Below, one piece after another: positions 199 through 24,650 of a DNA stretch of 64,000 nucleotides. Numbering within the stretch: the first letter of the stretch is position 1; every line of letters begins with the position of its first letter. The stretch comes from a phage. A program made the translations under genes and the position numbers. The stretch is from sequence record PZ053912.1. One strand, written 5' to 3'. The notes under the pieces were generated by a model. It was not told the DNA's origin. It was given only the letters and a program-made list of their open reading frames with translations, and did not search any database.

Positions 199-540
199 TT
201 AAAAGAATTTAAATTTTTTCTTGGTCCGTTCATTAAAAGCTTGTTGTACTTGCATTGTAACACATTTTTCAACATGTGGTGCAAGTTCTGCTTTTCTATC
301 CTGGTCAAGAACTGCAAAGTCCATTACGATTTTACCATCAACCCAGTCTAGTTTTGTAATATAGACTATATGATGAGAACCGTCTTCAAGTGTAATCAGA
401 ATCTCTTGAATGACATTTTCCATTGCTGAACGGATAATTTTAAGAGATTCATTAAACACTCGTTCTTTGCGAATGTCTTCCCCTTCCGAAGAAGGGGATT
501 CATCAACGATTTCTAGATTTAAATCATCGAGATTATTCAT
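199..540 (-). CDS. 40: gp40-like head vertex assembly protein; start taken at internal ATG 538-540 overlapping the uvsX stop
   Basis: ORF 199..561; 114 aa from MNNLDDLNLEIVD; position between uvsX and 41 as in T4. Confidence 0.6.
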   Translation of the reverse strand: MNNLDDLNLEIVDESPSSEGEDIRKERVFNESLKIIRSAMENVIQEILITLEDGSHHIVYITKLDWVDGKIVMDFAVLDQDRKAELAPHVEKCVTMQVQQAFNERTKKKFKFF

Positions 541-1705
541 CGAAATCTTCCATTTCGTCAAGGTCGTTTTCTATATCTGCTGCAGACGGAGCATCAGAAG
601 TTTTAACCGGAACTTTAGTTGTTGCTTTGCAATTAATAAGGTCATTAACAGCGTCATCAACTTCTTTAATAGAAGAGATAGCACCTAGTTTATATTTAGT
701 TTCAATTGCATCTCGGAAAGGTTTGTGTTTAAACAACGGTCCCCAGAATTCTACACAATCAGTAGCTTTAGCACGCCATGATTTCTCTTCACGAATCATT
801 TCGCCTGTTTCTTCGTCAAGGAATTCTCGAGCATACCAACCAGCTTTAGGCTTAACCACAAAACCGATTTCAGTTGCCATTTCTAACAAGCCACTGAATG
901 GGTCGATACCACCATCGAAATTAACCGTGATTGGGAAAGTAGATTTCTCTTTAACTGTACGAGATTTTTCTGCTTTCAACGTGAAGTCATAACCGGTCAA
1001 TTCTGTACCTTCTTTAACCTGACGTTTAGAGATAAAGAATACGGTGTTAGCAGAGTAAAGAATACCTGTGCCACCGCCCATAATCTCTTTAGGATACAAT
1101 CCGCCAATTTCCATTGCTGTATGGTTGATTGCAACACATGGAATATCTTTAATAGTCAGATAAGGAGTCACAATGCGGAACAGAGATTTAAGTGCCTTAG
1201 CACGAGACATATCACCTACGACTTTCTCGTTCAATGCATCTTCGGTTTCTTTCTTAGATGCAGTATTACCGATTGAATCGATAAAGATAATAACTTTATC
1301 ACCGCGTTCAATCGCGTCAAGCTGATTAGTCATATCAACTTTAAGTTGTTCGACAGATTGAATCGGAGTATGAACTACACGGTCTAAATCAACACCCATT
1401 GAACGAAAATAAGATTCTGAAGCACCAAATTCTGAATCATAGAACAAACAAATTGCATCTTTATATTTCTTCATATATGCTGCAACCATGGTCAGTCCAA
1501 ACAACGTTTTAAAGTGTTTAGAAGGAGCAGCAAAAATAGTTAAGCCTGATTGCAACCCGGCATTCAGTGCACCACCTAATGCAATATTCAACATCGGAAT
1601 ACGAGTAGGGACTTCATCGCGATTATTAAACAGCTTAGACTTAGTCAAGTCTGCAGTCATTTTAGAAGTAGAAGCTTTAATCAGACGAGATTTTAAATCA
1701 GACAT
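533..1705 (-). CDS. uvsX: UvsX RecA-like recombinase
   Basis: 390 aa; MSDLKSRLIKASTSKMTADL... and RecA-fold core recalled from T4 UvsX. Confidence 0.95.
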   Translation of the reverse strand: MSDLKSRLIKASTSKMTADLTKSKLFNNRDEVPTRIPMLNIALGGALNAGLQSGLTIFAAPSKHFKTLFGLTMVAAYMKKYKDAICLFYDSEFGASESYFRSMGVDLDRVVHTPIQSVEQLKVDMTNQLDAIERGDKVIIFIDSIGNTASKKETEDALNEKVVGDMSRAKALKSLFRIVTPYLTIKDIPCVAINHTAMEIGGLYPKEIMGGGTGILYSANTVFFISKRQVKEGTELTGYDFTLKAEKSRTVKEKSTFPITVNFDGGIDPFSGLLEMATEIGFVVKPKAGWYAREFLDEETGEMIREEKSWRAKATDCVEFWGPLFKHKPFRDAIETKYKLGAISSIKEVDDAVNDLINCKATTKVPVKTSDAPSAADIENDLDEMEDFDE

Positions 1706-1804
1706 TGTATTTTTCCATAGGCATCATTATATTTTACTCATGTTTAAAAGATAAGATGATTATATACTAAGGGTTATACAGCATTTAAAACTTTAAACAG
1801 GCTC

Positions 1805-2353
1805 TTAACGAGCCCATTTGATAATTTCTGTAATCAAATAATTACGTTCGCTTGCATTAAATCCTATAACTTTGTTAGCACCGTCATGATTAAGTAATTG
1901 ATACGTTTGGATTTTGTTATGAATTGCAAACTCTTCAAAATATGAAATGACTGTATTAAAACCGAATGAAGACAAAGTAATAAGATCGTCTTCAAAACTT
2001 TCAGTCATTTCGTTACGTGTTAAAATAATTGTGAACACATCATGGTTTTGGCAAAGACGAACATAATCCTGTTCATAAACGTCAAGAACCGAGTCCGCAT
2101 CTTGTCGAATACGTCCATAAACCCAGTTACTAATATATCCACGGTCTAACAGATAAATCTTAGTAGGGTCTAAATAATTCAACATCGTTTCGAAACAGCC
2201 AACTTCATTTCGAGACTTAACATCGAAACGTCCATCAACTGTTCGTTTAGGGAAATCAATCTTTACATATCTTTCACTAATTTCCATTATGTCATTAATG
2301 AAAGTTGTTTTACCAGCATTATCCGGGCCATCTACTAAAATAATTTTAGCCAT
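1805..2353 (-). CDS. P-loop NTPase, small kinase-like protein, substrate unknown
   Basis: 182 aa; Walker A GPDNAGKTT at residues 9-17; sits in the block between uvsX and gene 42. Confidence 0.5.
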   Translation of the reverse strand: MAKIILVDGPDNAGKTTFINDIMEISERYVKIDFPKRTVDGRFDVKSRNEVGCFETMLNYLDPTKIYLLDRGYISNWVYGRIRQDADSVLDVYEQDYVRLCQNHDVFTIILTRNEMTESFEDDLITLSSFGFNTVISYFEEFAIHNKIQTYQLLNHDGANKVIGFNASERNYLITEIIKWAR

Positions 2354-2354
2354 T

Positions 2355-3254
2355 TTATTCCTCGATTACGACATCTTCATATTTAGGTATATTATACGGC
2401 GAAGAAATTAAAGCGTTAAAGTAGATGAACTCGCCAAGACCTGGATGGAATACTTCTTCAGGATTTTCGAAATATTGAATCTTCGGCCGTCCTTTAAGAA
2501 TTTGATAGTACTCAGTTTTAGTTGGTTTAAAAATTCGAATCAGCGCTTCTTCAGGATACTTATTTCTGTCGAAGCTATTATTTGGATCGGTTATATAAAG
2601 CGGTTGGCCTAATTGAATTGCACATTCAACCACTTGTTCAAAACGATAGCACGGGTCACTAATTCGAAATGGATGAAAAATACCATCTAGATGAATAGGA
2701 GCCAAATCACCTACAAGACGCTGCATGATGGAAGGACGTATAACTTTCTGGGTTACGATAATCTTATTACCATCTGCACCTGCGTTAACCAGCACTTCTT
2801 TTTGACGTTCATTCAACACAGTAGTTTGAAGTGAACGATTAACCGACAACATATCAGTTTTTAAGAATTCGTCAATATAAAAACGTGGTTTATTAGGGTC
2901 TGCAGTGATATTGAAATTGAATTCCACATCAAAAGCGCCGTCATATCCGGTGATATCTGTGATTAGAAAATCACAATCATAATAAGCAATTAATGAATCA
3001 ACCACAAATTCATTTTCAGACCAGAAATATTTACGAGTGTTATACGCGTTATCTTTATACCATAATGGAACAAACTTAAATTCTGGAAAAAGACGTTCGC
3101 ATTCTTTAATATCAGATGCATTACGTGGATATGTAATCACATCACCCGGATTAGCACGGTGCAAATGAAGTTGGAAGTTGCCATCCTTAAGGATAGCATA
3201 CTGTCCAGTTTCATAAGACCGCATACTCAAGATAGGTACGCGGAAATTAGCCAT
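2355..3254 (-). CDS. Hypothetical protein at the locus where T4 has beta-glucosyltransferase; candidate DNA sugar transferase (inference only)
   Basis: 299 aa ORF tightly packed between the P-loop gene and gene 42; no resemblance to T4 beta-gt or any motif I recognise. Confidence 0.4.
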   Translation of the reverse strand: MANFRVPILSMRSYETGQYAILKDGNFQLHLHRANPGDVITYPRNASDIKECERLFPEFKFVPLWYKDNAYNTRKYFWSENEFVVDSLIAYYDCDFLITDITGYDGAFDVEFNFNITADPNKPRFYIDEFLKTDMLSVNRSLQTTVLNERQKEVLVNAGADGNKIIVTQKVIRPSIMQRLVGDLAPIHLDGIFHPFRISDPCYRFEQVVECAIQLGQPLYITDPNNSFDRNKYPEEALIRIFKPTKTEYYQILKGRPKIQYFENPEEVFHPGLGEFIYFNALISSPYNIPKYEDVVIEE

Positions 3255-3970
3255 TAGTCAAGGAATCCTTTAACATAATCAAAATCACGTTCAAACACAT
3301 GGGCACTTACCATGGTATGAGTATAATCACCAACTTCTACACCACATTCGTTAGCGATATAATGAAGTAATTTTCCTTGGAGATAAAAATCCAACTGCAT
3401 AACAACAGCACAGTTCTGAGAACGCATATGACAGTGGGTATAAAGCTTACCATCACGAATATAATAAGTCACTGAGTCAGTACATGGATATTCAAGTGTT
3501 TCGTCCGAATCAAGCAAAGCCTGATCTGAACTTTCAAGAATTTGAAACACAACTCTTCGAGAGTTAGGTTTCTCTTTAAGTTCTTTGAGAAGAGCTGGTA
3601 ATTGGGCCGCAATGCGAGGACCATAGAAAGTGTTGAAGTTCGCCGGCAAAACATCTGATTTTGGTTTAGAAATAAATTTAGCGACATTAGGATATGCCTT
3701 AAACGCTTCTTCTGCGTTGGTACCACCAGAAATCATAAACTTCCAGAAGTCTTCGGCATATTCATAAGAGATGCGGTTAATACGTGGGTCGGTCATTTTG
3801 AATGATGATGGAGTGTCAACAACTACTGTCATAGACCCAATTTCATTACAACGTCCAATACGAGAATCAGTTACGAATTCCGGGTTTTCTAAAATTTCAC
3901 GATTGACTGCTTTAAATGCGGTTTGAAAATCTGCGGCTTTGATATATTTCATTGTGTTATGTTTTCCCAT
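3254..3970 (-). CDS. 42: dCMP hydroxymethylase (thymidylate synthase family)
   Basis: 238 aa; CTDSVTYYIRDGKLYTHCHMRSQNCAVV resembles the active-site block of T4 gp42/thymidylate synthases; T4 position of gene 42. Confidence 0.8.
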   Translation of the reverse strand: MGKHNTMKYIKAADFQTAFKAVNREILENPEFVTDSRIGRCNEIGSMTVVVDTPSSFKMTDPRINRISYEYAEDFWKFMISGGTNAEEAFKAYPNVAKFISKPKSDVLPANFNTFYGPRIAAQLPALLKELKEKPNSRRVVFQILESSDQALLDSDETLEYPCTDSVTYYIRDGKLYTHCHMRSQNCAVVMQLDFYLQGKLLHYIANECGVEVGDYTHTMVSAHVFERDFDYVKGFLD

Positions 3971-3990
3971 GTTTACCTCAATACAATTTA

Positions 3991-4014
3991 TTATATACTC
4001 AATTCGTAAAGCTT
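3991..4014 (-). promoter_or_regulatory. Candidate MotA-type middle promoter upstream of gene 42
   Basis: Minus strand AAGCTTTAC (MotA-box-like) about 11 nt upstream of TATAAT, about 20 nt before the gene 42 ATG. Confidence 0.3.
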
Positions 4015-4146
4015 ATTTGAATTTCTTGACAATGTTGATATAACGTAAAGCTTCAGCATCGATACTTCCAAGAACACTATGAAGAAATGCATCAGCGTAG
4101 TATTCCAATTGAACAGGTTTCTTTAATCACTTTAGCCGCTTTAGTT

Positions 4147-4170
4147 TCAAACAGGCCCTTATGGGCCTGT
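4147..4170 (-). terminator. GC-rich perfect palindrome AAACAGGCCC-TTAT-GGGCCTGTTT (10-bp stem); terminator-like hairpin after the 386-aa gene
   Basis: Seen directly; no clear U tract. Confidence 0.35.
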
Positions 4171-4249
4171 TTAAGAATTTGTTCGTTGCTGTTAATTTTC
4201 ATAGTCAAAATCTCTTCATTAAGTTGGTGGTTAAAAGTTTTTCTAGAAA

Positions 4250-5410
4250 TCATTCCGGGTACCTCAAAGCGTCATCAGAGTTAGTTATATCAATAATAGA
4301 TATAGAGTTTTCTGCTAACCCATTTTTAGATAACTGACGTTTATAATATCTTTCACAATATGTACACGTCGTCCCGCAGATTTCATTAGCACAATCGAAA
4401 TCTGGATGTCTGAACCACCTTTTTTCTAAAAAGCCGTCTAACAAAGAGGTTTCAATATTTACTGTATGTGAAAACTCAATTTCGTTTTCAAGAGTGAAAA
4501 TAGTCTCTAAAGGCTTCCACAGTTCTAACAAATTACCTTCAAACTTTTCAGAAGCGTATGCTTCAAGAACTTTCAAAATGTAGTCTGTGCTACCTGTACG
4601 TCCTGAAACTTTGAATTGAGTGATACCAATATCATTATAAAGTTTCAAATCTTGAGGACGAACAAAACGAGTTCTCAACCAGTTAAATGGGTCTGTATCA
4701 CGAGCTTTAATACAGTGCTGCATAGGATATCCGTTTAAGGATTTAGCATCATCAGCTGTAACATCAGTACTATGGAAAATATAGCAAGAGTCACGATAGC
4801 TACAATGTGTTGTATACCCTTTACCAGCATTAGAACAGAACTCATTTACAAGAACTTCAAATATTATATTGTTCTTATTGCAAAACTCTGCTGCACGCTT
4901 CAGGAAAGAAACTGAACGGTTCTTATGAATTCCACAGCAGACCTTTTTGATATTATATTGGTCATGCAAATATTTGATTTGAGTTACAGCATCGACATGT
5001 AGAATTGTTGAAACTTCAATCTCAATGTCTTTATTGACTTCACGAACAATTTCCATAACAACAGGGTTAGCGATAGTAATACGCCATACGCCTATTGACC
5101 AAAGATACTGAACATAATCCTGAATAGCTTTCTTCTTCCACTCAACTAGTTCTCTTTTTGAACCAGGATTTATCGTGTTGAGTGTATAGTTAAAGCAAAT
5201 ACCTAATTCGTTACAACGTTTAACGTAATCTTCTAACATCTTTTTGTCAACGTCAGGAAGCCTAAAATCAGGTCTGGCTGCTACAAAAGCCATTTCTCTT
5301 GTAGAGCCGTATACTTCATTTATCAAGCTATTAGGATAAGTTTTATTGAGCTCTACGATTTTATCAAGAAGAGCTAAATCAAAATTCGTTCCGATTTTAA
5401 AAGTATTCAT
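4250..5410 (-). CDS. Cys-rich enzyme-like protein of unassigned family; possible Fe-S protein
   Basis: 386 aa; Cys clusters CSNAGKGYTTHCSYRDSC and C-terminal CANEICGTTCTYC (contains CxxxCxxC); lies inside the sugar-nucleotide gene block. Confidence 0.45.
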   Translation of the reverse strand: MNTFKIGTNFDLALLDKIVELNKTYPNSLINEVYGSTREMAFVAARPDFRLPDVDKKMLEDYVKRCNELGICFNYTLNTINPGSKRELVEWKKKAIQDYVQYLWSIGVWRITIANPVVMEIVREVNKDIEIEVSTILHVDAVTQIKYLHDQYNIKKVCCGIHKNRSVSFLKRAAEFCNKNNIIFEVLVNEFCSNAGKGYTTHCSYRDSCYIFHSTDVTADDAKSLNGYPMQHCIKARDTDPFNWLRTRFVRPQDLKLYNDIGITQFKVSGRTGSTDYILKVLEAYASEKFEGNLLELWKPLETIFTLENEIEFSHTVNIETSLLDGFLEKRWFRHPDFDCANEICGTTCTYCERYYKRQLSKNGLAENSISIIDITNSDDALRYPE

Positions 5411-5467
5411 TTTTTTACATCTCGCGTTAATTGATGCGATGGTTTTTTGCAGGTCTTACTTAAATTA

Positions 5468-5854
5468 TTATAGATTCGGTTTATATGATTTAAATGTTTC
5501 GAATTCGCCTTTATTCATAAGAGCTTTGAATTCGTCAGGACGCATAGCTTTGTCGTCGATAATCCAATCATATACTGGTTTATGTGTTAGCAAATTATGG
5601 TACTTCAAGCCAATGTTTGCCAAGTTCTGAATCAGACTTGGGAGAATGTCAATTGCTATACGACCAGGACCTACTGACTTCATACCACGAGCAGTGTAAA
5701 GCGTTATGGTATGCCCTGCATCATACAGGGCATTAATGGCAGACACCATTTCGACGTCTGGTTTGAAGTTCACGTAATCACGATTGTTATTCCACTCTGT
5801 TATACAATCATCGACATCAAAACAAAGATTAAGCATGTTTTCTACACGGTGCAT
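5468..5854 (-). CDS. HAD-superfamily phosphatase, small
   Basis: HAD motif I FDVDDCIT and C-terminal KPxxDWIIDD; start ambiguous (ATG at 5869, 5854 or 5836); 5854 gives a TAATG overlap with the upstream stop. Confidence 0.65.
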   Translation of the reverse strand: MHRVENMLNLCFDVDDCITEWNNNRDYVNFKPDVEMVSAINALYDAGHTITLYTARGMKSVGPGRIAIDILPSLIQNLANIGLKYHNLLTHKPVYDWIIDDKAMRPDEFKALMNKGEFETFKSYKPNL

Positions 5855-7542
5855 TAGATTCGTTCCCATTGATGAGTGATATCGCCACCGATTGGACGAT
5901 AGGAAACACCAGTTTCTTTATCAGTTAGTACCCATTTACCAGGATTTTTTGTAATCAGAGTAGCCGTTACAGGTTCTGCTACGTCATAACTAATAGAGCC
6001 GTCTTGAAGTACACGGCCCATGTTACGTAATTGCTTAGTCAGAAGTTCCATACCTTTATAATATGCGGCTACCGCTTTAAGTGGATTATTCTTGAAATAA
6101 CCACCTAATGCAATCCAGATAATTGCCACTGCCAAATGATGATACTCGTTAAACGAACTCATCTTTCCATATTTGTAAACTAATGGATTGATGTTAATAG
6201 TCACATTACAAGTTGTTTCATCAATAGTAAACTGTCCCCAGGTCGGATTAGCATTGAATTCATCATAACCTGAAACAGCATAAAGCACTTTAGCTTCATC
6301 GTACAATTTTGGCCCGTAAATCTTGGTTTCGCCAAAATATCCACGAGGGTCGATAAACTTGACTTCACCATTATCAGTAATCATAGTATTACTGAAGTTC
6401 GGGTCACCATGAATAACAGAGTACTGTCCCTGAGAACGGTTATGATAACGAATAAGGTGTTCTAAAGCTTGTTTCAACATTGGCTTCAGACGTCCAATCT
6501 TAGTGTAGTTCACATGTGTGATTTTACCGAATGAATCAATCAATGGTTGAATACTTTCACAACGATCAATAACTTTCGTATAGAACTCTTTAGTGAAATC
6601 ACGGCGAACAGTTTCAGGACTTACAAAATAAGTGTCTGTGCTGAATTTCAGTGCATCTAAAATTGCATCAACAATTTGTGGACGAGCAAGACTCGATTTG
6701 GATTTAATATATTCAAATGCCGGCTTACCTTTAATGCGTTCCATAATAAAGTGGCCGCCAGGATGATAACTTACAATCCGTGGAACTGAATCTGATTTAA
6801 CTTTCTTATACCAATTGACTTCATCTTTTTGAAGTGCAACGCCCTGTTCTGTTAAAGCAATCTTTGTTACCGTTTCTTCGCCAATTTCAACTGCATTAAA
6901 ACTACGATTAAGTTCACGAACTTCATGAGCTTTTTCAAGTTTAGGCATATCACCAAGGTCGATGATATTCATAAGCTCTGATTTATTGAATGCGCTGCCG
7001 TAAAGGAATTCTACGAAATCACGTCCTTTGCAGTATTCATGAATTTCCTCATCAGTAGAACCCATATAGAATTCCCAGTCTTTGAACTGATAAATTCCTA
7101 CAACATTACCACCTGTTGAACCTACATTAGTGATATTTTCACCGTCGAAATTATATCGACATTCGTCACCCTTAACATAGATTGCGTTAACATTCCAAGA
7201 CCACGAACCAAAATCAGGAATAATATCACACCAGTTAACAATTACATTATGGCCGTCTAAATCTTTGTGCAATTTAGCAAGAGCATAAGCAGAACCATAC
7301 GCTTCATCAACTGTACGAATAGTCACATTGAACCCTTCTTGCTCACAATAAGCTCGAACAGTTTCAGCAAATTTTGAATGAACTACTACAATAATTTCAT
7401 CTGCGCCAAGGTCAGAATAAATTGTATACAAATTGCTCAGAATAGTGTCTTGTTTATAGTTAACAAGCACCTTAGGAATATGATGCGTTATTGGATACAA
7501 ACGAGTTGCCAGTCCAGCACCAAGAATAACAGCTTTTTTCAT
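5854..7542 (-). CDS. Bifunctional sugar-phosphate nucleotidyltransferase (N-terminal) / APH-choline-kinase-fold kinase (central-C-terminal)
   Basis: 562 aa; N-terminal AVILGAGLATRL glycine-rich nucleotidyltransferase signature; later VIHGDPNFSN ... KFIDPRG resembles the catalytic loop of APH/choline kinases. Confidence 0.7.
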   Translation of the reverse strand: MKKAVILGAGLATRLYPITHHIPKVLVNYKQDTILSNLYTIYSDLGADEIIVVVHSKFAETVRAYCEQEGFNVTIRTVDEAYGSAYALAKLHKDLDGHNVIVNWCDIIPDFGSWSWNVNAIYVKGDECRYNFDGENITNVGSTGGNVVGIYQFKDWEFYMGSTDEEIHEYCKGRDFVEFLYGSAFNKSELMNIIDLGDMPKLEKAHEVRELNRSFNAVEIGEETVTKIALTEQGVALQKDEVNWYKKVKSDSVPRIVSYHPGGHFIMERIKGKPAFEYIKSKSSLARPQIVDAILDALKFSTDTYFVSPETVRRDFTKEFYTKVIDRCESIQPLIDSFGKITHVNYTKIGRLKPMLKQALEHLIRYHNRSQGQYSVIHGDPNFSNTMITDNGEVKFIDPRGYFGETKIYGPKLYDEAKVLYAVSGYDEFNANPTWGQFTIDETTCNVTININPLVYKYGKMSSFNEYHHLAVAIIWIALGGYFKNNPLKAVAAYYKGMELLTKQLRNMGRVLQDGSISYDVAEPVTATLITKNPGKWVLTDKETGVSYRPIGGDITHQWERI

Positions 7543-7723
7543 GTTGTGGTCCTCATTGGTAAGTAGGAGTATTGTACACTATTCTAGTTAAAGCATTCAT
7601 ACTTTGCTTGTAGTCCAATCATAATCCATCCAATTACAAGTGTTGGAATCATTACTGGAGCCGTTAAGCTCCAGTAGATAGTCATGACAAGCATCAATAG
7701 TAAAAGTCCTATTGTTATTGCTT

Positions 7724-8359
7724 TCATTGTTCGCCTCGTAACATGGCACCTAGTGCACCGCCAGGGTGGAACTTAAGGAAGTCATTAGAGGTAAATCCAC
7801 GCTCAGACGAAAGGTTGATAGCAAACGTATCGATAAGCGCTAACAACAATGTAGTGGACATGGTCGGAGCCAGAGAATTCTCATCAACCTCTACTGCGAT
7901 GCCTGTACAGAAAGAGTAATCAAAAAGGGCTTCATTTTCTTGTGGAATGTCCGGGTTACAATGCAACAGAATCTGTTTGACGTTCGGACGAATCATTTTA
8001 AGATGCTTAGCCACGCCTATCATTTCTTCAGTTTTACCAGAACGACTAATATGAATCAACACATCATTAGGCGCAATGAATCCTGCATCACCGTGAGAAT
8101 AATGCCCAGTGTTCAAGTACATACTCGGGATACCGAGTGAAGCAAATGTCTCAGAAGCTTTAGTTGCAATATTAGCATTCTTACCAACACCTGTAATAAT
8201 TACTCGGCTTTCATAATTACTAAGTCCTGGGCGTCGAAGAGTTTCTAGAATAGCATTATAACGAGCAGGGTTTTGACTAATTACTTTGGCCATAGCGGCC
8301 AAAGAAGAAGCTTGTTTTATGATTGCGTCAATAGCGATAGTAATAGGAGTAGTTTTCAT
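7724..8359 (-). CDS. SIS-domain sugar-phosphate isomerase, KdsD/GutQ-like arabinose-5-phosphate isomerase core without CBS domains
   Basis: 211 aa; GVGKNANIATKASETFASLG, HGDAGFIAP, ISRSGKTEE and C-terminal FHPGGALG match my memory of the KdsD SIS domain. Confidence 0.75.
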   Translation of the reverse strand: MKTTPITIAIDAIIKQASSLAAMAKVISQNPARYNAILETLRRPGLSNYESRVIITGVGKNANIATKASETFASLGIPSMYLNTGHYSHGDAGFIAPNDVLIHISRSGKTEEMIGVAKHLKMIRPNVKQILLHCNPDIPQENEALFDYSFCTGIAVEVDENSLAPTMSTTLLLALIDTFAINLSSERGFTSNDFLKFHPGGALGAMLRGEQ

Positions 8360-8399
8360 ATTTCTCTCATTTAATTAGTTTACCGTCCATGACATTATA

Positions 8400-11111
8400 T
8401 CAAAAATCGAACATATCGAACAGAGATGCTTTCTTCTCGTAATCGAGTTTCGCTGCTGATGTGAATCCTTCAAGTGGTTTAATAAATGTCTTCTCAAGGA
8501 GAACAGTGTAGTCCATCCAATGAAGTACGTCGTCTTTAATTAAATCGGTGATTTCAGTACCAGAAGGCCATGCGATACATTTATCACCGAATGGGTTTCC
8601 TTCACGTAAAGGCAGAACATATACTTTTTCACCTTCTACAACTTGCGGTGCATCGATATTACCTTTGATAGCCCGGTTATACGTCAGAATTCCACGAATA
8701 TGGAACGGGCATTTGGGACCAGGGAATCCACCTACATCATATTTAGCAATGTTATTCGCAGAAGATACCGACGCGATGCTAATATAATTCAATTGACGGA
8801 ATTCTTTTTCAAACTCTTTAAAATATTCTTGTAATGATTCTTCACCTTCTTGAAGCATACGACGAATACATTCTTTAAGAGCTTTCTGTACTGCTTTAGG
8901 AGTCGAAGATTTCTGAGTCTCTAGACCCATGATTTTGAGTTTAGGCTCAGCGTAACGAGTACCTTCCATATCCCACACGTTTAATGCATAACGTTTCTTA
9001 CCAGTCCAGAATCCACCAATACCTTTAGAACCGAGTGGAGGCCCAGCGATAGCTTCTCGGTCCATGAACATTAAGTGTTGTTTATTGTTCATGTATTCAC
9101 ACATTTCACGGAAACCTCTATCAATAGCTGGTTCCATACGTTCACGAGCGAACTTATCTAAGAAGTCTACCCAATGGTTGGTATCACGGAATTTAGATTC
9201 ACCAACCTTATCGATAATTTTATCAGCAGATACGTAAATAGAGTCTGTATCACCATAAAGAACGAAAGCTTCACCTTCTGTACCACAAACTTCATTCAGA
9301 TATTCATTAACTTTACGTTCAATCCACTGTAAAGCCATTTGACCAAATGTTGTGATTGCAGTAGCATTACGCAAATCATAATAACGGAACCAAACGTTGC
9401 CAAGTGCACCATAAAGTGAGTTGATAAGCAATTTACGGTTAATTTGGGCAGTCATACCTGCAACTTCAGTACGTTGAGCTCTAAACAACATTTCATTAAG
9501 AGATTTAGCAGACAACTTTTTAATCTTTTCTTTAATCTCATCGCTGAAGTCGAAACGATAATCAACATCTAATGGTTCGTCAACAGAAAGATTAGGATTA
9601 TGCAATGCCTCTTTAATTATTTCGCCATTACGTTGAGCCGCAAGCATATAACCTTTATGTTCTTTACGTTGATTAAAGACCTTAGTGATTTCAGTTGGAA
9701 CTACACCATCACGGTCTTTATAATACATCATGCCGTTAGGAGAGCAACTGTACACATCGGAAGGACGTTCAGCGATTGCGTTAATATAATCATGTAGTGG
9801 AGCTACTTTAAACGTTCCTGCTATTGTTTCTGGGCTAATATTCACTTGGCGAATAATACTTGGATACAGAGATGTAAGGTCGAAACTCATTACATATTTG
9901 TATCGATTTGGAATAGGTTCCTTAACAAAAGCGCCGGGATAAGGTTGAACCGGGTGAGAACGACCTTGTGGAATCACCTTGTTCTGCTCTTTAAGGCTAT
10001 TAAAAATAATAGCATCCCATGTTTTAATTGGGCTAAACACAGATTGAATCTGTATCTTAGCATAATAACCCATGTCCAAACTCAAGTTGATGAACTGACG
10101 CTTAGCATCAATTTGCAATACACGATACACGTCGATAATGTTATAAGAAATATATCGTTGGTGATTGCTTTCACGAAGCTTAGAAATAGGGCCGTCATAT
10201 TTCAGTTTACCAACGTTCAATTCAAATTCTGAAATGTAATCCAGAGAATATGACGGTTGATTGGTAAAAGAGAATTTTTTGTAAAGGTCAATGTAATCAA
10301 GAACAGAGATACCGAACAATGTAATGATTTCACGAGAACCATACATGTTTTCGATAACTTTAACACGAGTTTTACGATGTGGTGATAAACGTTTCGCAGT
10401 AGATTCGCCAAAAATATTCTTGATTCGGTTATACACATATGGAATATCAAATGACTCAACGTTCCATCCAGTCAAAATGACAGGAGTTTTCTGTTGCCAG
10501 AAGTTGAGATATTCCATCAACAATTCTTTTTCGTTATCGAACGGCATATAAATGATTTTATCGATAATTTCTGATGGAACTTCATCACCACCTTGTTCTT
10601 GAAGCTTAGCCGCAATTTCGATAGACCATTCTTCTACATTACCATATGGAGAATTCAATAGATCAAATACGTAGAACCTGTCATCAATTGAGTCATAATG
10701 GGTGATAGCATCAATCGGATGTTTTGCTTGCGACGGCTCAGGGAACCCATCCGGAGATGTTACTTCGATGTCGAAGTTAGCCACACGAATTTTTGTATGG
10801 TCGTATTTGATTTCATAGTTATAAGTGTCAGACAAATACGCCAATTTGAAATCGTCCATGCCAAGTGCTTCAAGTCCGATATCTTCCATGCGTTTAATCC
10901 ATTGGGAGGCATCACGCATATTAGCGAACAACTTACGAGTGCACGGCTTACCGTAGATATCGAAATATTTCGTAGCCTGACTTTCTGGACAATGAGCAAA
11001 CAGTGATGGTTTATATTCTACTTCACGAGTACGTTCACGACCATTAGAATCGATGTAACGTTCAAAAATTGAATCACCAATCTGTTCAACCGTTAAGTAA
11101 AATTCTTTCAT
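8400..11111 (-). CDS. 43: DNA polymerase gp43 (family B)
   Basis: 903 aa; MKEFYLTVEQIGDSIFERYIDSNGRERTREVEYKPSLF..., exo motif FDIEV, pol motifs SLYPS and YGDTDS; recalled as RB69-type gp43. Confidence 0.97.
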   Translation of the reverse strand: MKEFYLTVEQIGDSIFERYIDSNGRERTREVEYKPSLFAHCPESQATKYFDIYGKPCTRKLFANMRDASQWIKRMEDIGLEALGMDDFKLAYLSDTYNYEIKYDHTKIRVANFDIEVTSPDGFPEPSQAKHPIDAITHYDSIDDRFYVFDLLNSPYGNVEEWSIEIAAKLQEQGGDEVPSEIIDKIIYMPFDNEKELLMEYLNFWQQKTPVILTGWNVESFDIPYVYNRIKNIFGESTAKRLSPHRKTRVKVIENMYGSREIITLFGISVLDYIDLYKKFSFTNQPSYSLDYISEFELNVGKLKYDGPISKLRESNHQRYISYNIIDVYRVLQIDAKRQFINLSLDMGYYAKIQIQSVFSPIKTWDAIIFNSLKEQNKVIPQGRSHPVQPYPGAFVKEPIPNRYKYVMSFDLTSLYPSIIRQVNISPETIAGTFKVAPLHDYINAIAERPSDVYSCSPNGMMYYKDRDGVVPTEITKVFNQRKEHKGYMLAAQRNGEIIKEALHNPNLSVDEPLDVDYRFDFSDEIKEKIKKLSAKSLNEMLFRAQRTEVAGMTAQINRKLLINSLYGALGNVWFRYYDLRNATAITTFGQMALQWIERKVNEYLNEVCGTEGEAFVLYGDTDSIYVSADKIIDKVGESKFRDTNHWVDFLDKFARERMEPAIDRGFREMCEYMNNKQHLMFMDREAIAGPPLGSKGIGGFWTGKKRYALNVWDMEGTRYAEPKLKIMGLETQKSSTPKAVQKALKECIRRMLQEGEESLQEYFKEFEKEFRQLNYISIASVSSANNIAKYDVGGFPGPKCPFHIRGILTYNRAIKGNIDAPQVVEGEKVYVLPLREGNPFGDKCIAWPSGTEITDLIKDDVLHWMDYTVLLEKTFIKPLEGFTSAAKLDYEKKASLFDMFDF

Positions 11112-22365: not shown

Positions 22366-22836
22366 TTAATCATGTTTCCACACCCCATCGGTATTTGACC
22401 AAAGTCGCTGATTATCTGATCCTCGCCACAGCTTTTTAGTCGGAAGATTTTTCTCATACTTCCCATCAATAATAACATCAACATATTTAAGCATTTCTAG
22501 TTGTTTAATATCTTCAAACTTATATCCTGTCCACAACCAAATGCTTTTATTAGGATAAAGATTTTTTACTGTTTGAACGATGCAATGAACAACATCTCGG
22601 TTGTCAGGATAGAGAGGGTCACCTCCGGTTATAGTCAATCCTTCTATATAATCATTATTCAAGCATTCAATTAATTGTTCTAGTGTCTCTCCAGTGAATG
22701 GAATGCCATTTCTAGCATTCCATGTTGATTTATTATAACACCCTTCGCATTTATGCAAACAACCTGTAACGAAAAGAACGACCCTGCATCCAGGGCCATT
22801 CACAAAATCGCAAGGATAAAATCTATCATAATTCAT
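22366..22836 (-). CDS. nrdG: Anaerobic ribonucleotide reductase activase NrdG (radical SAM)
   Basis: 156 aa; CLHKCEGCYN (CxxxCxxC); adjacent to nrdD. Confidence 0.9.
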   Translation of the reverse strand: MNYDRFYPCDFVNGPGCRVVLFVTGCLHKCEGCYNKSTWNARNGIPFTGETLEQLIECLNNDYIEGLTITGGDPLYPDNRDVVHCIVQTVKNLYPNKSIWLWTGYKFEDIKQLEMLKYVDVIIDGKYEKNLPTKKLWRGSDNQRLWSNTDGVWKHD

Positions 22837-24650
22837 TGGTGTTTAACCCTATGCATGATTTCTTTATTTTTACCGAGATTAAATCCGCGTTCGTTCGGAT
22901 TTCCCAAATAACCGCATGTTCTTCTTATGGTGTTCATCTTTTTAGGATCACTTTCTCCACAAATAGAACAAACAAATCCGTTTTCAGTAGGAGTCATTTC
23001 ATGGGTACTTCCACATGTAAAACATTTATCTACTGGCATATTAACACCAAAATAATCTAAATGCTGTGCAGCATAATCCCATACAGCCTCAAGACCTTTT
23101 AGGTTATTTTTCATATCAGGAAGTTCAACATAAGAAATGTGACCACCTGTTGCAATGAAATGATACGGGGCTTCGCGAGAAATCTTTTCAAACGGAGTAA
23201 TATTTTCTTCTACCGAAACGTGGAAACTATTAGTGTACCAGCCTTTATCAGTAACATCTTTTACACTTCCATATTTCTCAGTATCAAGTTTACAGAAGCG
23301 ATAGCACAGGTTTTCAGCAGGTGTAGAATACAAGCTAAAAGCAAAACCGGTTCTTTCAGTCCACTGCTTAAGACGAGCATTCATTTTAGTTAAAATTTCC
23401 TGTCCAATATCACGTCCGACAAGAATATTCAATTCGTGAATACCAATGTATCCTAGGGACACTGAACTTCTACCATTTTTAAATAACTCAATTATATCGT
23501 CATCAGGTTTAAGACGAACCCCGAATGCACCTTCTTGGTAAAGAATAGGAGCTACAGTTGCTTTAACACCCTTTAAAGAACTAATTCTACACATCAAAGC
23601 TTCAAAACACAGATCCATTCGTTCATTAAATAGCTCAACAAATTTCTGTTCATTGAATTGTGTTCCAATATAAGAATCTAATGCAATACGAGGAAGATTC
23701 AGTGTTACAACACCAAGATTATTACGTCCATCAAGAATTTCATTACCAGTCGAATCTTTCCATACGCTCAAGAAACTACGACAGCCCATCGGAGAAACAG
23801 GAACTGAAGAACCAGTAATAGCTTTATTATTCTTAACCGAAATAATGTCAGGATACATTCTTTTGCTTGCACATTCTAACGCAAGTTGTTTAATATCATA
23901 GTTCGGATCATCTTTATAAAGATTAACACCTTCTTCAACAAACATAACAAGTTTAGGAAAAATAGGAGTTATCCCATCACGACCAAGGCCTTTAATGCGG
24001 TTTTTAAGAATTGTCTTCTGAATAATTCGTTCAGTCCAGTCAGTTCCAGTACCAAATGTAATTGTCACAAAAGGCGTTTGTCCGTTTGAACTAAAGAGAG
24101 TATTTACTTCATATTCATAAGCTTGGAATGCATCGTATACGTCTTTTTCTGTTTTAGATTGGGCGTAATTCAACGCATCAGCGATTTGCCATTTTTCTGC
24201 ATCCTCAATATGTTTTGCATAGGTGCGTTTAACATAAGGAGAAAGTACTTTATCTACATTCGCAAATGTAGTTCCACCATACTGATGCGAAGCAACTTGT
24301 GCAGTAATTTGTGCCATAATTGCAGTAGCAACGCCAATAGATTTAGGCGTTTCAATTTGAGCATTGCCTAATTTAAATCCATTCTCAAGCATTCCTTTTA
24401 AATCTACTAAACAGCAATTAGTAAATGGAAGAGCAGGAGAATAATCAATATCATGGAAATGGATAATTCCGCTTTCATGTGCTTTCATAATAAAAGACGG
24501 GACCATATTTTTGGCAATGTGCTTAGACACAATACCAGCCATAAGGTCCCGTTGAGTTGGAAAAACACGAGAATCTTTATTAGCATTCTCGTTCAAAAGA
24601 TCTTTATTAGTTTTATGAATTAATCCTTCAATTTCTTTTTCAATTTTCAT
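22833..24650 (-). CDS. nrdD: Anaerobic ribonucleoside-triphosphate reductase NrdD (glycyl radical enzyme), uninterrupted
   Basis: 605 aa; C-terminal Cys cluster CFTCGSTHE...CSICGESD and glycyl-radical tail RTCGYLG. Confidence 0.95.
   Translation of the reverse strand: MKIEKEIEGLIHKTNKDLLNENANKDSRVFPTQRDLMAGIVSKHIAKNMVPSFIMKAHESGIIHFHDIDYSPALPFTNCCLVDLKGMLENGFKLGNAQIETPKSIGVATAIMAQITAQVASHQYGGTTFANVDKVLSPYVKRTYAKHIEDAEKWQIADALNYAQSKTEKDVYDAFQAYEYEVNTLFSSNGQTPFVTITFGTGTDWTERIIQKTILKNRIKGLGRDGITPIFPKLVMFVEEGVNLYKDDPNYDIKQLALECASKRMYPDIISVKNNKAITGSSVPVSPMGCRSFLSVWKDSTGNEILDGRNNLGVVTLNLPRIALDSYIGTQFNEQKFVELFNERMDLCFEALMCRISSLKGVKATVAPILYQEGAFGVRLKPDDDIIELFKNGRSSVSLGYIGIHELNILVGRDIGQEILTKMNARLKQWTERTGFAFSLYSTPAENLCYRFCKLDTEKYGSVKDVTDKGWYTNSFHVSVEENITPFEKISREAPYHFIATGGHISYVELPDMKNNLKGLEAVWDYAAQHLDYFGVNMPVDKCFTCGSTHEMTPTENGFVCSICGESDPKKMNTIRRTCGYLGNPNERGFNLGKNKEIMHRVKHQ

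Follow-up and report, generated by a model that had tools for sequence, protein, structure and literature searches.

The 64,000-nucleotide phage DNA analysed in this study (sequence record PZ053912.1, hereafter the window) belongs to an RB69-like T4-type phage of the genus Mosigvirus; its bases 1700-8450 are 97.5-98.2% identical to those of RB69, HY126, ZQ3 and many relatives. Its DNA-modification module contains a U32-family gene, the 386-amino acid (aa) product of which is the ortholog of RB69 gp50, annotated as 'peptidase'. Judged from sequence and gene context, gp50-type proteins are probably prephenate-dependent, O2-independent cytosine C5 hydroxylases, the anaerobic counterpart of the ThyA homolog encoded approximately 280 bp downstream in the same operon. 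A divergent iron-sulfur (Fe-S) enzyme of the U32 family would hydroxylate cytosine at C5 without O2, the oxygen being taken from prephenate, and the product, 5-hydroxycytosine, would be the acceptor arabinosylated by the neighbouring glycosyltransferase. The gene itself is already known and annotated; the proposed function would extend the U32 hydroxylase theme to phage DNA hypermodification, and no publication proposing it for gp50 was found in the accessible literature.

The open reading frame (ORF) listing bore out the gene placed at 4250-5410 in a preliminary description of the window, an ATG ORF on the minus strand. Pfam Peptidase_U32 (PF01136) matched residues 94-286 of the protein with 42.2 bits (gathering cut-off, 22.4; E = 7.3e-11). 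This was the only domain found in the Pfam scan; DUF3656 and Peptidase_U32_C were not found, placing the protein outside the RlhA and TrhP subfamilies. It is likewise outside the UbiU/UbiV equivalogs, with 18.5 bits against NCBIfam quinone_UbiU (cut-off, 440), and no UbiT or UbiV-like gene was observed among its neighbours in the window. An AlphaFold model made from 37 homologues had a pLDDT of 91.4 and a pTM of 0.90. When the predicted structure was subjected to fold comparison, a check proposed in the preliminary description, the top match was the TIM barrel of the U32 structure 5D88 (Mk0906). Mk0906 is the only solved U32 structure; it shares 11-14% identity with the phage protein and differs from it in having neither the Cys-rich insert nor the C-terminal extension. 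The preliminary description had considered both U32 and radical SAM and found that neither fitted cleanly; the Pfam score and the fold overturn the first half of this statement, while the second half holds for canonical radical SAM enzymes.

Among the four Escherichia coli U32 paralogs, RlhA gave the best profile match in hhalign (probability, 80%; E = 1.3e-5; RlhA residues 46-258). TrhP was matched with E = 2e-3 over the N-terminal half only, UbiU weakly, and UbiV not at all. No matches were obtained by phmmer of the 386-aa protein against PDB sequences, and a profile search against PDB returned only spurious ones. On these sequence comparisons, the protein is a genuine U32 member of a distinct subfamily; this subfamily comprised 472 clusters at 50% identity (E ≤ 1e-30). 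Across the T4-like genera, U32 was the most conserved protein of the cluster, with 83-89% identity versus 65-79% for DNA polymerase and 74-83% for the ThyA homolog.

Cysteines are present at residues 66, 72, 158, 159, 177, 192, 203, 209, 233, 340, 345, 349 and 352. Two clusters had been described, C-x10-C-x5-C in the middle of the protein and CANEICGTTCTYC near the C-terminus, and these correspond exactly to C192/C203/C209 and C340-x4-C345-x3-C349-x2-C352. Alignment of 121 homologues (to approximately 46% identity) showed that C158, C192, C203, C209, C233, C340, C345, C349 and C352 are invariant and that C177 is kept in 118; Cys 66, 72 and 159, located outside the clusters, vary freely. Since the cluster cysteines are invariant or nearly so and those elsewhere variable, the pattern is not due to chance. 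In distant full-length representatives (n = 128), C233 was retained in all 128, C192 in 126, and the four C-terminal cysteines in 105-113.

The U32 motif CX6CX15CX3/4C serves a [4Fe-4S] cluster, and the UbiU cysteines are experimentally proven ligands (PMC6747719). In MAFFT L-INS-i alignments, C203 and C209 aligned with C169/C176 of UbiU, C170/C177 of TrhP and C169/C176 of RlhA; 'GYPMQHC233' resembles 'GYPTLC232' of UbiU, and UbiU C169, C176 and C232 correspond to C203, C209 and C233. The fourth invariant residue, C192, sits in an 11-residue insert specific to this U32 subfamily, and the four (C192, C203, C209 and C233) form a non-canonical arrangement. The earlier idea of an Fe-S enzyme gains support from this alignment with the proven UbiU ligands and the matching TrhP and RlhA residues, and the phage protein looks like an Fe-S enzyme, cluster binding being what we infer. 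RlhA also requires four C-terminal cysteines (PMC5727448), which were not alignable with C340, C345, C349 and C352. Each functional unit of UbiU-UbiV contains two clusters, and in the phage protein a single chain has two Cys clusters; the latter may stand in for the two clusters of the heterodimer.

The C-terminal cluster permits another interpretation, in which the protein is a non-canonical radical-SAM-like enzyme that performs radical chemistry on base or sugar. Residues C345-GTT-C349-T-Y351-C352 match the radical-SAM motif CX3CXphiC, are invariant in the 121 homologues, and radical SAM/SPASM genes occur near U32 homologues in two contexts. Radical_SAM (PF04055), however, gave no Pfam match at E ≤ 0.1, no SAM-binding motifs were identified, and the CX3CXYC motif is C-terminal on the U32 barrel, 35 residues from the C-terminus of the barrel, rather than in the N-terminal part of a partial barrel, where it would be expected in a canonical enzyme. 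A canonical radical SAM enzyme was ruled out on these grounds. The non-canonical version, which also leaves the chorismate mutase linkage described below unexplained, is highly improbable.

Studied members of the U32 family are O2-independent hydroxylation factors, not proteases. Genetic evidence shows a requirement for RlhA, TrhP and UbiU/V, each in an O2-independent hydroxylation (PMC5727448, PMC6599085, PMC6747719, PMC10990095). Prephenate is needed in all three pathways, as a genetic requirement for RlhA and TrhP (PMC5727448, PMC6599085, PMC10990095), and was identified as the oxygen donor for UbiU/V by 18O labelling (PMC10990095). GenBank records mostly name the phage protein 'peptidase' or 'collagenase-like protease', in keeping with its membership of MEROPS family U32. 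The family has no defined catalytic protease residues, and the protease label rests on annotation only. Invariant Cys clusters, a nucleotide-metabolism context and linkage to chorismate mutase have no protease logic, and together with the roles of the studied cellular proteins they make a collagenase-type protease extremely unlikely.

RlhA (YdcP of E. coli), the synthase of 5-hydroxycytidine at C2501 of 23S rRNA, is among the most similar of the known systems. Besides the U32 domain, the phage protein shares with it the alignment of the first two Fe-S cysteines, a motif of the form '..C-x5/6-C-Y-I-x-H', and an extra set of four C-terminal cysteines, which are essential in RlhA. Its chemistry, Fe-S- and prephenate-dependent cytosine C5 hydroxylation (PMC5727448), is that proposed for the phage protein. 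RlhA differs in being a 653-aa protein with DUF3656 that acts on pre-50S rRNA; the phage protein has no DUF3656 and no third and fourth canonical cysteines, these being apparently replaced by C192 and C233, and its gene context points to deoxynucleotides or DNA. With RlhA as the nearest E. coli paralog, the phage enzyme might be imagined to hydroxylate host or phage RNA (tRNA U34 or rRNA C2501-like sites), its siting in a DNA-modification module being incidental. This is very unlikely, as RlhA and TrhP are already available in E. coli, the phage protein has neither DUF3656 nor U32_C, and the linkage to DNA glycosyltransferase and nucleotide kinase genes is kept across very divergent phages.

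TrhP and TrhO form a parallel in organization. For ho5U34 of tRNA, a prephenate-dependent U32 enzyme working without O2 and an unrelated O2-dependent enzyme make the same 5-hydroxypyrimidine, and organisms living in both oxygen conditions retain both (PMC6599085). The differences are that the substrate is tRNA uridine, that the O2-dependent partner is rhodanese-like rather than a ThyA homolog, and that TrhP has U32_C. UbiU-UbiV, acting with UbiT, are U32 proteins with proven [4Fe-4S] clusters that use prephenate as oxygen donor (PMC10990095) and are the anaerobic counterpart of flavin monooxygenases; unlike the phage protein, they form a heterodimer with a lipid substrate and an SCP2 partner.

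To examine gene linkage, 47 viral loci, 11 genome loci and 2 metagenomic contexts encoding homologues were gathered, their ORFs were called and the proteins clustered; the T4-like set contained 15 loci and the non-T4 set 33 lineages after dereplication at 90% identity. Chorismate mutase is the enzyme whose product is prephenate. In Enterobacter phage Entb_45, a 79-aa gene with its start overlapping the U32 stop was found to encode a chorismate mutase (CM_2, 40.9 bits; cut-off, 27). With a hidden Markov model (HMM) of this protein, a chorismate mutase domain was detected within 10 kb of U32 in 13 of the 15 T4-like loci, mostly directly between U32 and the ThyA homolog, in a stretch where the genes are adjacent and translationally coupled. 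Pfam CM_2 was matched by all of the members tested (8/8; best E = 1.3e-13). A tblastn search of 50,697 phage genomes gave 51 matches to this chorismate mutase, all in T4-like phages and at the same position beside the ThyA homolog, and their genus counts were those of the U32 carriers. The GenBank record of phage LC53 lists a 'putative peptidase' together with a 'chorismate mutase domain-containing protein'; a transposon-mutagenesis preprint covering this phage holds no gene-level data for the U32 locus.

The linkage extends to 8 of the 33 non-T4 lineages. A fusion of type I DAHP synthase and chorismate mutase lies within one or two genes of U32 in L030, L032-L034, L044 and L055, and a small chorismate mutase is present near U32 in a jumbo-phage group (directly after U32) and in one other non-T4 locus. 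The six fusion loci are uncultured phage contigs of up to 199 kb and resemble a shikimate-pathway auxiliary metabolic module.

In RB69 DNA, the base carrying ether-linked beta-Araf-(1-3)-alpha-Araf (Araf, arabinofuranose) is 5-hydroxycytosine rather than hydroxymethylcytosine (Lee et al., NAR 2026, PMC13326640). The ThyA homolog gp48 binds flavin, requires a reductant and produces 5-hydroxy-deoxycytidine monophosphate (5-hydroxy-dCMP), with O2 identified as the oxygen source by 18O2 labelling; a complete three-enzyme route to UDP-arabinofuranose is provided by the SIS, kinase/NTP-transferase and HAD proteins (PMC13326640). Compared with gp50, the ThyA homologs RB69 gp48, DLP3 gp80 and that of HY126 would share the product, 5-hydroxy-dCMP, and the arabinosylation pathway. 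They differ in having a thymidylate synthase fold and in using flavin mononucleotide and O2, and their activity is experimental where the role of gp50 is a proposal. Earlier literature either does not mention gp50 or merely lists it as a co-occurring 'peptidase'.

The ThyA homolog was present in all 15 T4-like loci. U32 was linked to a homolog of the RB69 arabinosyltransferase in 20 of the 33 non-T4 lineages, which are often associated with anaerobes, and in 19 of these 20 no ThyA homolog was detected by six-frame HMM search of 10 kb on either side; the sole non-T4 ThyA-family gene found in that range lies closer to true ThyA. Other genes of the module were kept within 10 kb of U32 in the non-T4 lineages, including a gp45-like kinase (n = 15; hhalign 97%), the NTP-transferase/kinase (n = 12), the SIS gene (n = 9), a dUTPase_2/MazG-type dCTPase-like gene (n = 5) and dCMP deaminase (n = 5). 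Because these lineages retain glycosyltransferase, kinase and sugar genes without ThyA, the ThyA homolog is the one module member missing where U32 stands alone.

This distribution bears on whether U32 might serve the ThyA-like hydroxylase as a redox accessory, for example by transferring electrons through an Fe-S cluster or by reducing flavin, and not be a hydroxylase itself. Such a role would suit the reductant requirement of the flavin enzyme (PMC13326640) and the adjacency and translational coupling of the genes in T4-like phages. It is nevertheless very unlikely given the 19 lineages with U32 and no ThyA homolog nearby and, conversely, the Acinetobacter phages that run the flavin enzyme without U32, and it leaves chorismate mutase unexplained.

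The preliminary description had suggested that the protein could be the transferase or could tailor the sugar; an O2-independent base hydroxylase, the role now favoured, was not among its suggestions. The former is contradicted by a distinct glycosyltransferase gene in the module, orthologous to RB69 gp46:47. As to the latter, a sugar or heterocycle reductase or other tailoring enzyme of the UDP-arabinose branch would agree with the position of the gene, which has the HAD phosphatase gene on one side and the base-modifying gene on the other, and with the label 'Sugar or heterocycle reductase' in Table 1 of PMC13326640. Phage DLP3 has no U32, and its Araf-Araf-5-O-cytosine core is identical to that of RB69 (PMC13326640), meaning that U32 leaves no trace in the sugar chemistry; other Acinetobacter phages without U32 also make arabinofuranosyl-5-O-cytosine. 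At least six lineages have U32, glycosyltransferase and kinase genes with no SIS or NTP-transferase genes nearby, the published route to UDP-arabinofuranose is already complete, and a sugar role gives no reason for the linkage to chorismate mutase. A role in the sugar branch is accordingly very unlikely, at much the same level as a redox accessory.

If gp50 is a cytosine hydroxylase, it most likely acts on a deoxycytidine nucleotide (dCMP), cytosine within DNA being the less likely substrate, because the neighbours include dCTPase, deaminase and kinase genes. The alternative is a U32 hydroxylase with a substrate other than dCMP, either cytosine in replicated DNA or deoxycytidine triphosphate (dCTP) or diphosphate. 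The substrates of RlhA and TrhP are polynucleotides (PMC5727448, PMC6599085), and a dedicated kinase is missing from some U32 loci. On the other side, the RNA-binding extensions of RlhA and TrhP are absent from the phage protein, and the dCTPase-like gene, dCMP deaminase and Tmk-like kinases beside U32 in many lineages constitute a nucleotide-pool signature. Furthermore, T4-like phages destroy dCTP, so unmodified cytosine should not enter their DNA. This alternative is therefore considered unlikely.

The hosts of U32 carriers are consistent with a role in anoxic conditions. U32 was found in 222 cultured phages, the hosts of which are all Enterobacterales or Shewanella. The ThyA homolog was found in 374 phage genomes, including 57 Acinetobacter and 20 Rhizobium phages without U32 (its absence was verified in Acinetobacter phage fHyAci03); Acinetobacter and Rhizobium are aerobes, and their phages keep the ThyA homolog alone. 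The genome matches were mostly metagenome-assembled genomes (MAGs) of gut anaerobes, namely Erysipelotrichales, Oscillospiraceae, Romboutsia, Gastranaerophilaceae and Clostridia, with further matches in a Phocaeicola isolate, one Planctomycetota MAG and one BRC1 MAG. Also encoded in the window, at 22366-24650 on the minus strand, are NrdD (605 aa, with glycyl-radical domain), an anaerobic ribonucleotide reductase, and NrdG (156 aa), the activase of NrdD. The phage is thus equipped to replicate without O2, yet O2 is required in the one route known to supply its obligatory cytosine analogue. NrdD/NrdG are also a precedent for a phage holding aerobic and anaerobic versions of one step of nucleotide metabolism.

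RB69-like phages, with their facultative-anaerobe hosts, would have in the U32 enzyme a counterpart to the neighbouring flavin/O2-dependent 5-hydroxy-dCMP synthase. Comparable pairs are TrhP and TrhO for tRNA, UbiUV and UbiIHF for ubiquinone and, within the phage itself, NrdDG and NrdAB. With the U32 enzyme, the modified DNA that is obligatory for the phage could be made in the anoxic gut; where the host is a strict anaerobe, U32 would be the only hydroxylase.

Several observations weigh against the proposed hydroxylase. RB69-like phages, including that of the window, have no chorismate mutase, its slot being filled by the 79-aa gp49. The motif CX6CX15CX3/4C is only half present in the phage protein, with C203-x5-C209 there and the third and fourth cysteines absent, and even C203 and C209 are replaced in approximately 40% of the 128 distant representatives (kept in approximately 60%). 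The reductase label is the sole one published for RB69 gp50, given undiscussed (PMC13326640), and U32 hydroxylases have not yet been reconstituted in vitro, their direct activity being undemonstrated (PMC10990095). Dhakavirus VR5 of E. coli has the ThyA homolog and no U32, showing that U32 is not indispensable for every enterobacterial phage of the ThyA-homolog type, and the host-distribution pattern reflects few independent evolutionary events. A contig-wide ThyA scan matched no non-T4 U32 contig, a weak negative with patterns specific to the T4-like enzyme. As for gp49, the possibility that it is a cryptic chorismate mutase was rejected, with no Pfam or NCBIfam match and an hhalign probability of 0.1%.

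The features of the region are listed in the Table. The siting within a DNA-modification module given in the preliminary description is correct, with SIS, NTP-transferase/kinase, HAD, U32, ThyA-homolog, glycosyltransferase and P-loop kinase genes lying between gp43 and uvsX, all on the same strand as U32, and the protein is part of this module in function as well.

Table. Coordinates of the U32-family gene, its domains and its neighbours in the window
Feature	Position	Strand	Basis
uvsX	533-1705	-	ORF and Pfam/PHROG assignment
Tmk-like P-loop nucleotide kinase (RB69 gp45)	1805..2353	-	phrog_761; hhalign 97% to kinases beside U32 in non-T4 phages
DNA arabinosyltransferase 1, ortholog of RB69 gp46:47, intact	2355..3254	-	phrog_3891; RB69 annotation; PMC13326640 Table 1
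ThyA homolog, equivalent of RB69 gp48 (flavin/O2-dependent 5-hydroxy-dCMP synthase)	3254..3970	-	Pfam Thymidylat_synt; 99% identity; PMC13326640
RB69 gp49 ortholog, frameshifted	4013..4253	-	Start overlaps U32 stop (ATGA); slot of the chorismate mutase in most related genera
U32-family gene, RB69 gp50 ortholog	4250..5410	-	386-aa ORF
C-terminal Cys cluster C340-x4-C345-x3-C349-x-Y-C352, putative second metal/Fe-S site, CX3CXphiC-like	4355..4393	-	Invariant in 121 homologues
Peptidase_U32 domain, residues 94-286, TIM-barrel core	4553..5131	-	Pfam match coordinates; hhalign to RlhA 46-258
Central Cys cluster C192-x10-C203-x5-C209-x23-C233, putative [4Fe-4S] site	4712..4837	-	Invariant in 121 homologues
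HAD phosphatase, AfhF-like (RB69 gp51)	5468..5869	-	phrog_1238; PMC13326640
Bifunctional NTP-transferase/kinase, AfhE-like (RB69 gp52:53), makes UDP-arabinose	5854..7542	-	Pfam NTP_transferase and APH-like domain; PMC13326640
SIS-domain arabinose-5-phosphate isomerase (RB69 gp55)	7724..8359	-	Pfam SIS; phrog_5670
DNA polymerase gp43	8400-11111	-	ORF and Pfam/PHROG assignment

The gp49 ortholog (79 aa when intact) has an extra A in the run at 4118-4120, which leaves a 53-aa ORF at 4092-4253. The gene is intact in RB69 and in locus L005, and the frameshift in the window could be a sequencing error or mark a real pseudogene. The glycosyltransferase and the NTP-transferase/kinase are each a single intact ORF in the window and are split (gp46/47 and gp52/53) in the RB69 record, which fits the published statement that the splits in RB69 are sequencing errors. 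Scans for promoters and terminators gave matches no more numerous than in shuffled sequence.

Other arrangements were observed around U32 homologues. In L003, L053 and L059-L062 (MAGs of anaerobes and Phocaeicola faecalis), a homolog with 40-49% identity is part of a separate conserved operon, in the order GP88 (PF17338), guanylate-kinase/SAM-methyltransferase fusion, 267-aa protein and U32. In L003, the genes after U32 are those for NT5C, a PnuC-like transporter, a deoxynucleoside kinase, a radical SAM-SPASM protein, a second U32-like protein and nucleoside 2-deoxyribosyltransferase. This operon may be a pathway for 5-hydroxy- or 5-methoxy-pyrimidine nucleotides. In L002, a phage-like 466-kb JGI contig, a homolog with 55% identity lies directly after dCMP deaminase and DNA polymerase III alpha; MazG/dUTPase_2-like, thymidylate kinase, UDG and radical SAM-SPASM genes are nearby, and no glycosyltransferase was found there. 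In 11 non-T4 lineages, the gene immediately upstream of U32 encodes a protein of approximately 200 aa (family f4; L028-L058). This family had no Pfam match, its similarity to HAD phosphatase reached 39% at most in hhalign, and it could represent either a U32 partner or the counterpart of AfhF.

Publication of the O2-dependent route to 5-hydroxycytosine came only in 2026 (PMC13326640), and the accessible literature does not deal with DNA modification by such phages in the anoxic gut, a gap that the proposed hydroxylase, if real, would fill. RB69-like phages would then hold an aerobic/anaerobic enzyme pair for one DNA hypermodification, and the phage chorismate mutases and DAHP-synthase fusions would be auxiliary genes supplying the oxygen donor, which would explain their presence. 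Whether gp50-type proteins are the first U32 hydroxylases acting on DNA precursors or DNA, as phage-encoded, prephenate-dependent, O2-independent cytosine (or pyrimidine) C5 hydroxylases, appears to us evenly balanced. Should this be so, the U32 field would gain a small, soluble, single-chain test-case enzyme with the soluble substrates dCMP and prephenate. Glycosylated 5-hydroxypyrimidine DNA would then be made by U32 alone in many uncultured phages, jumbo phages among them, that infect strict gut anaerobes. Hypermodification with 5-hydroxypyrimidines would be predicted to be widespread in phages of anaerobes, with a bearing on evasion of restriction and CRISPR and on phage therapy in the gut.

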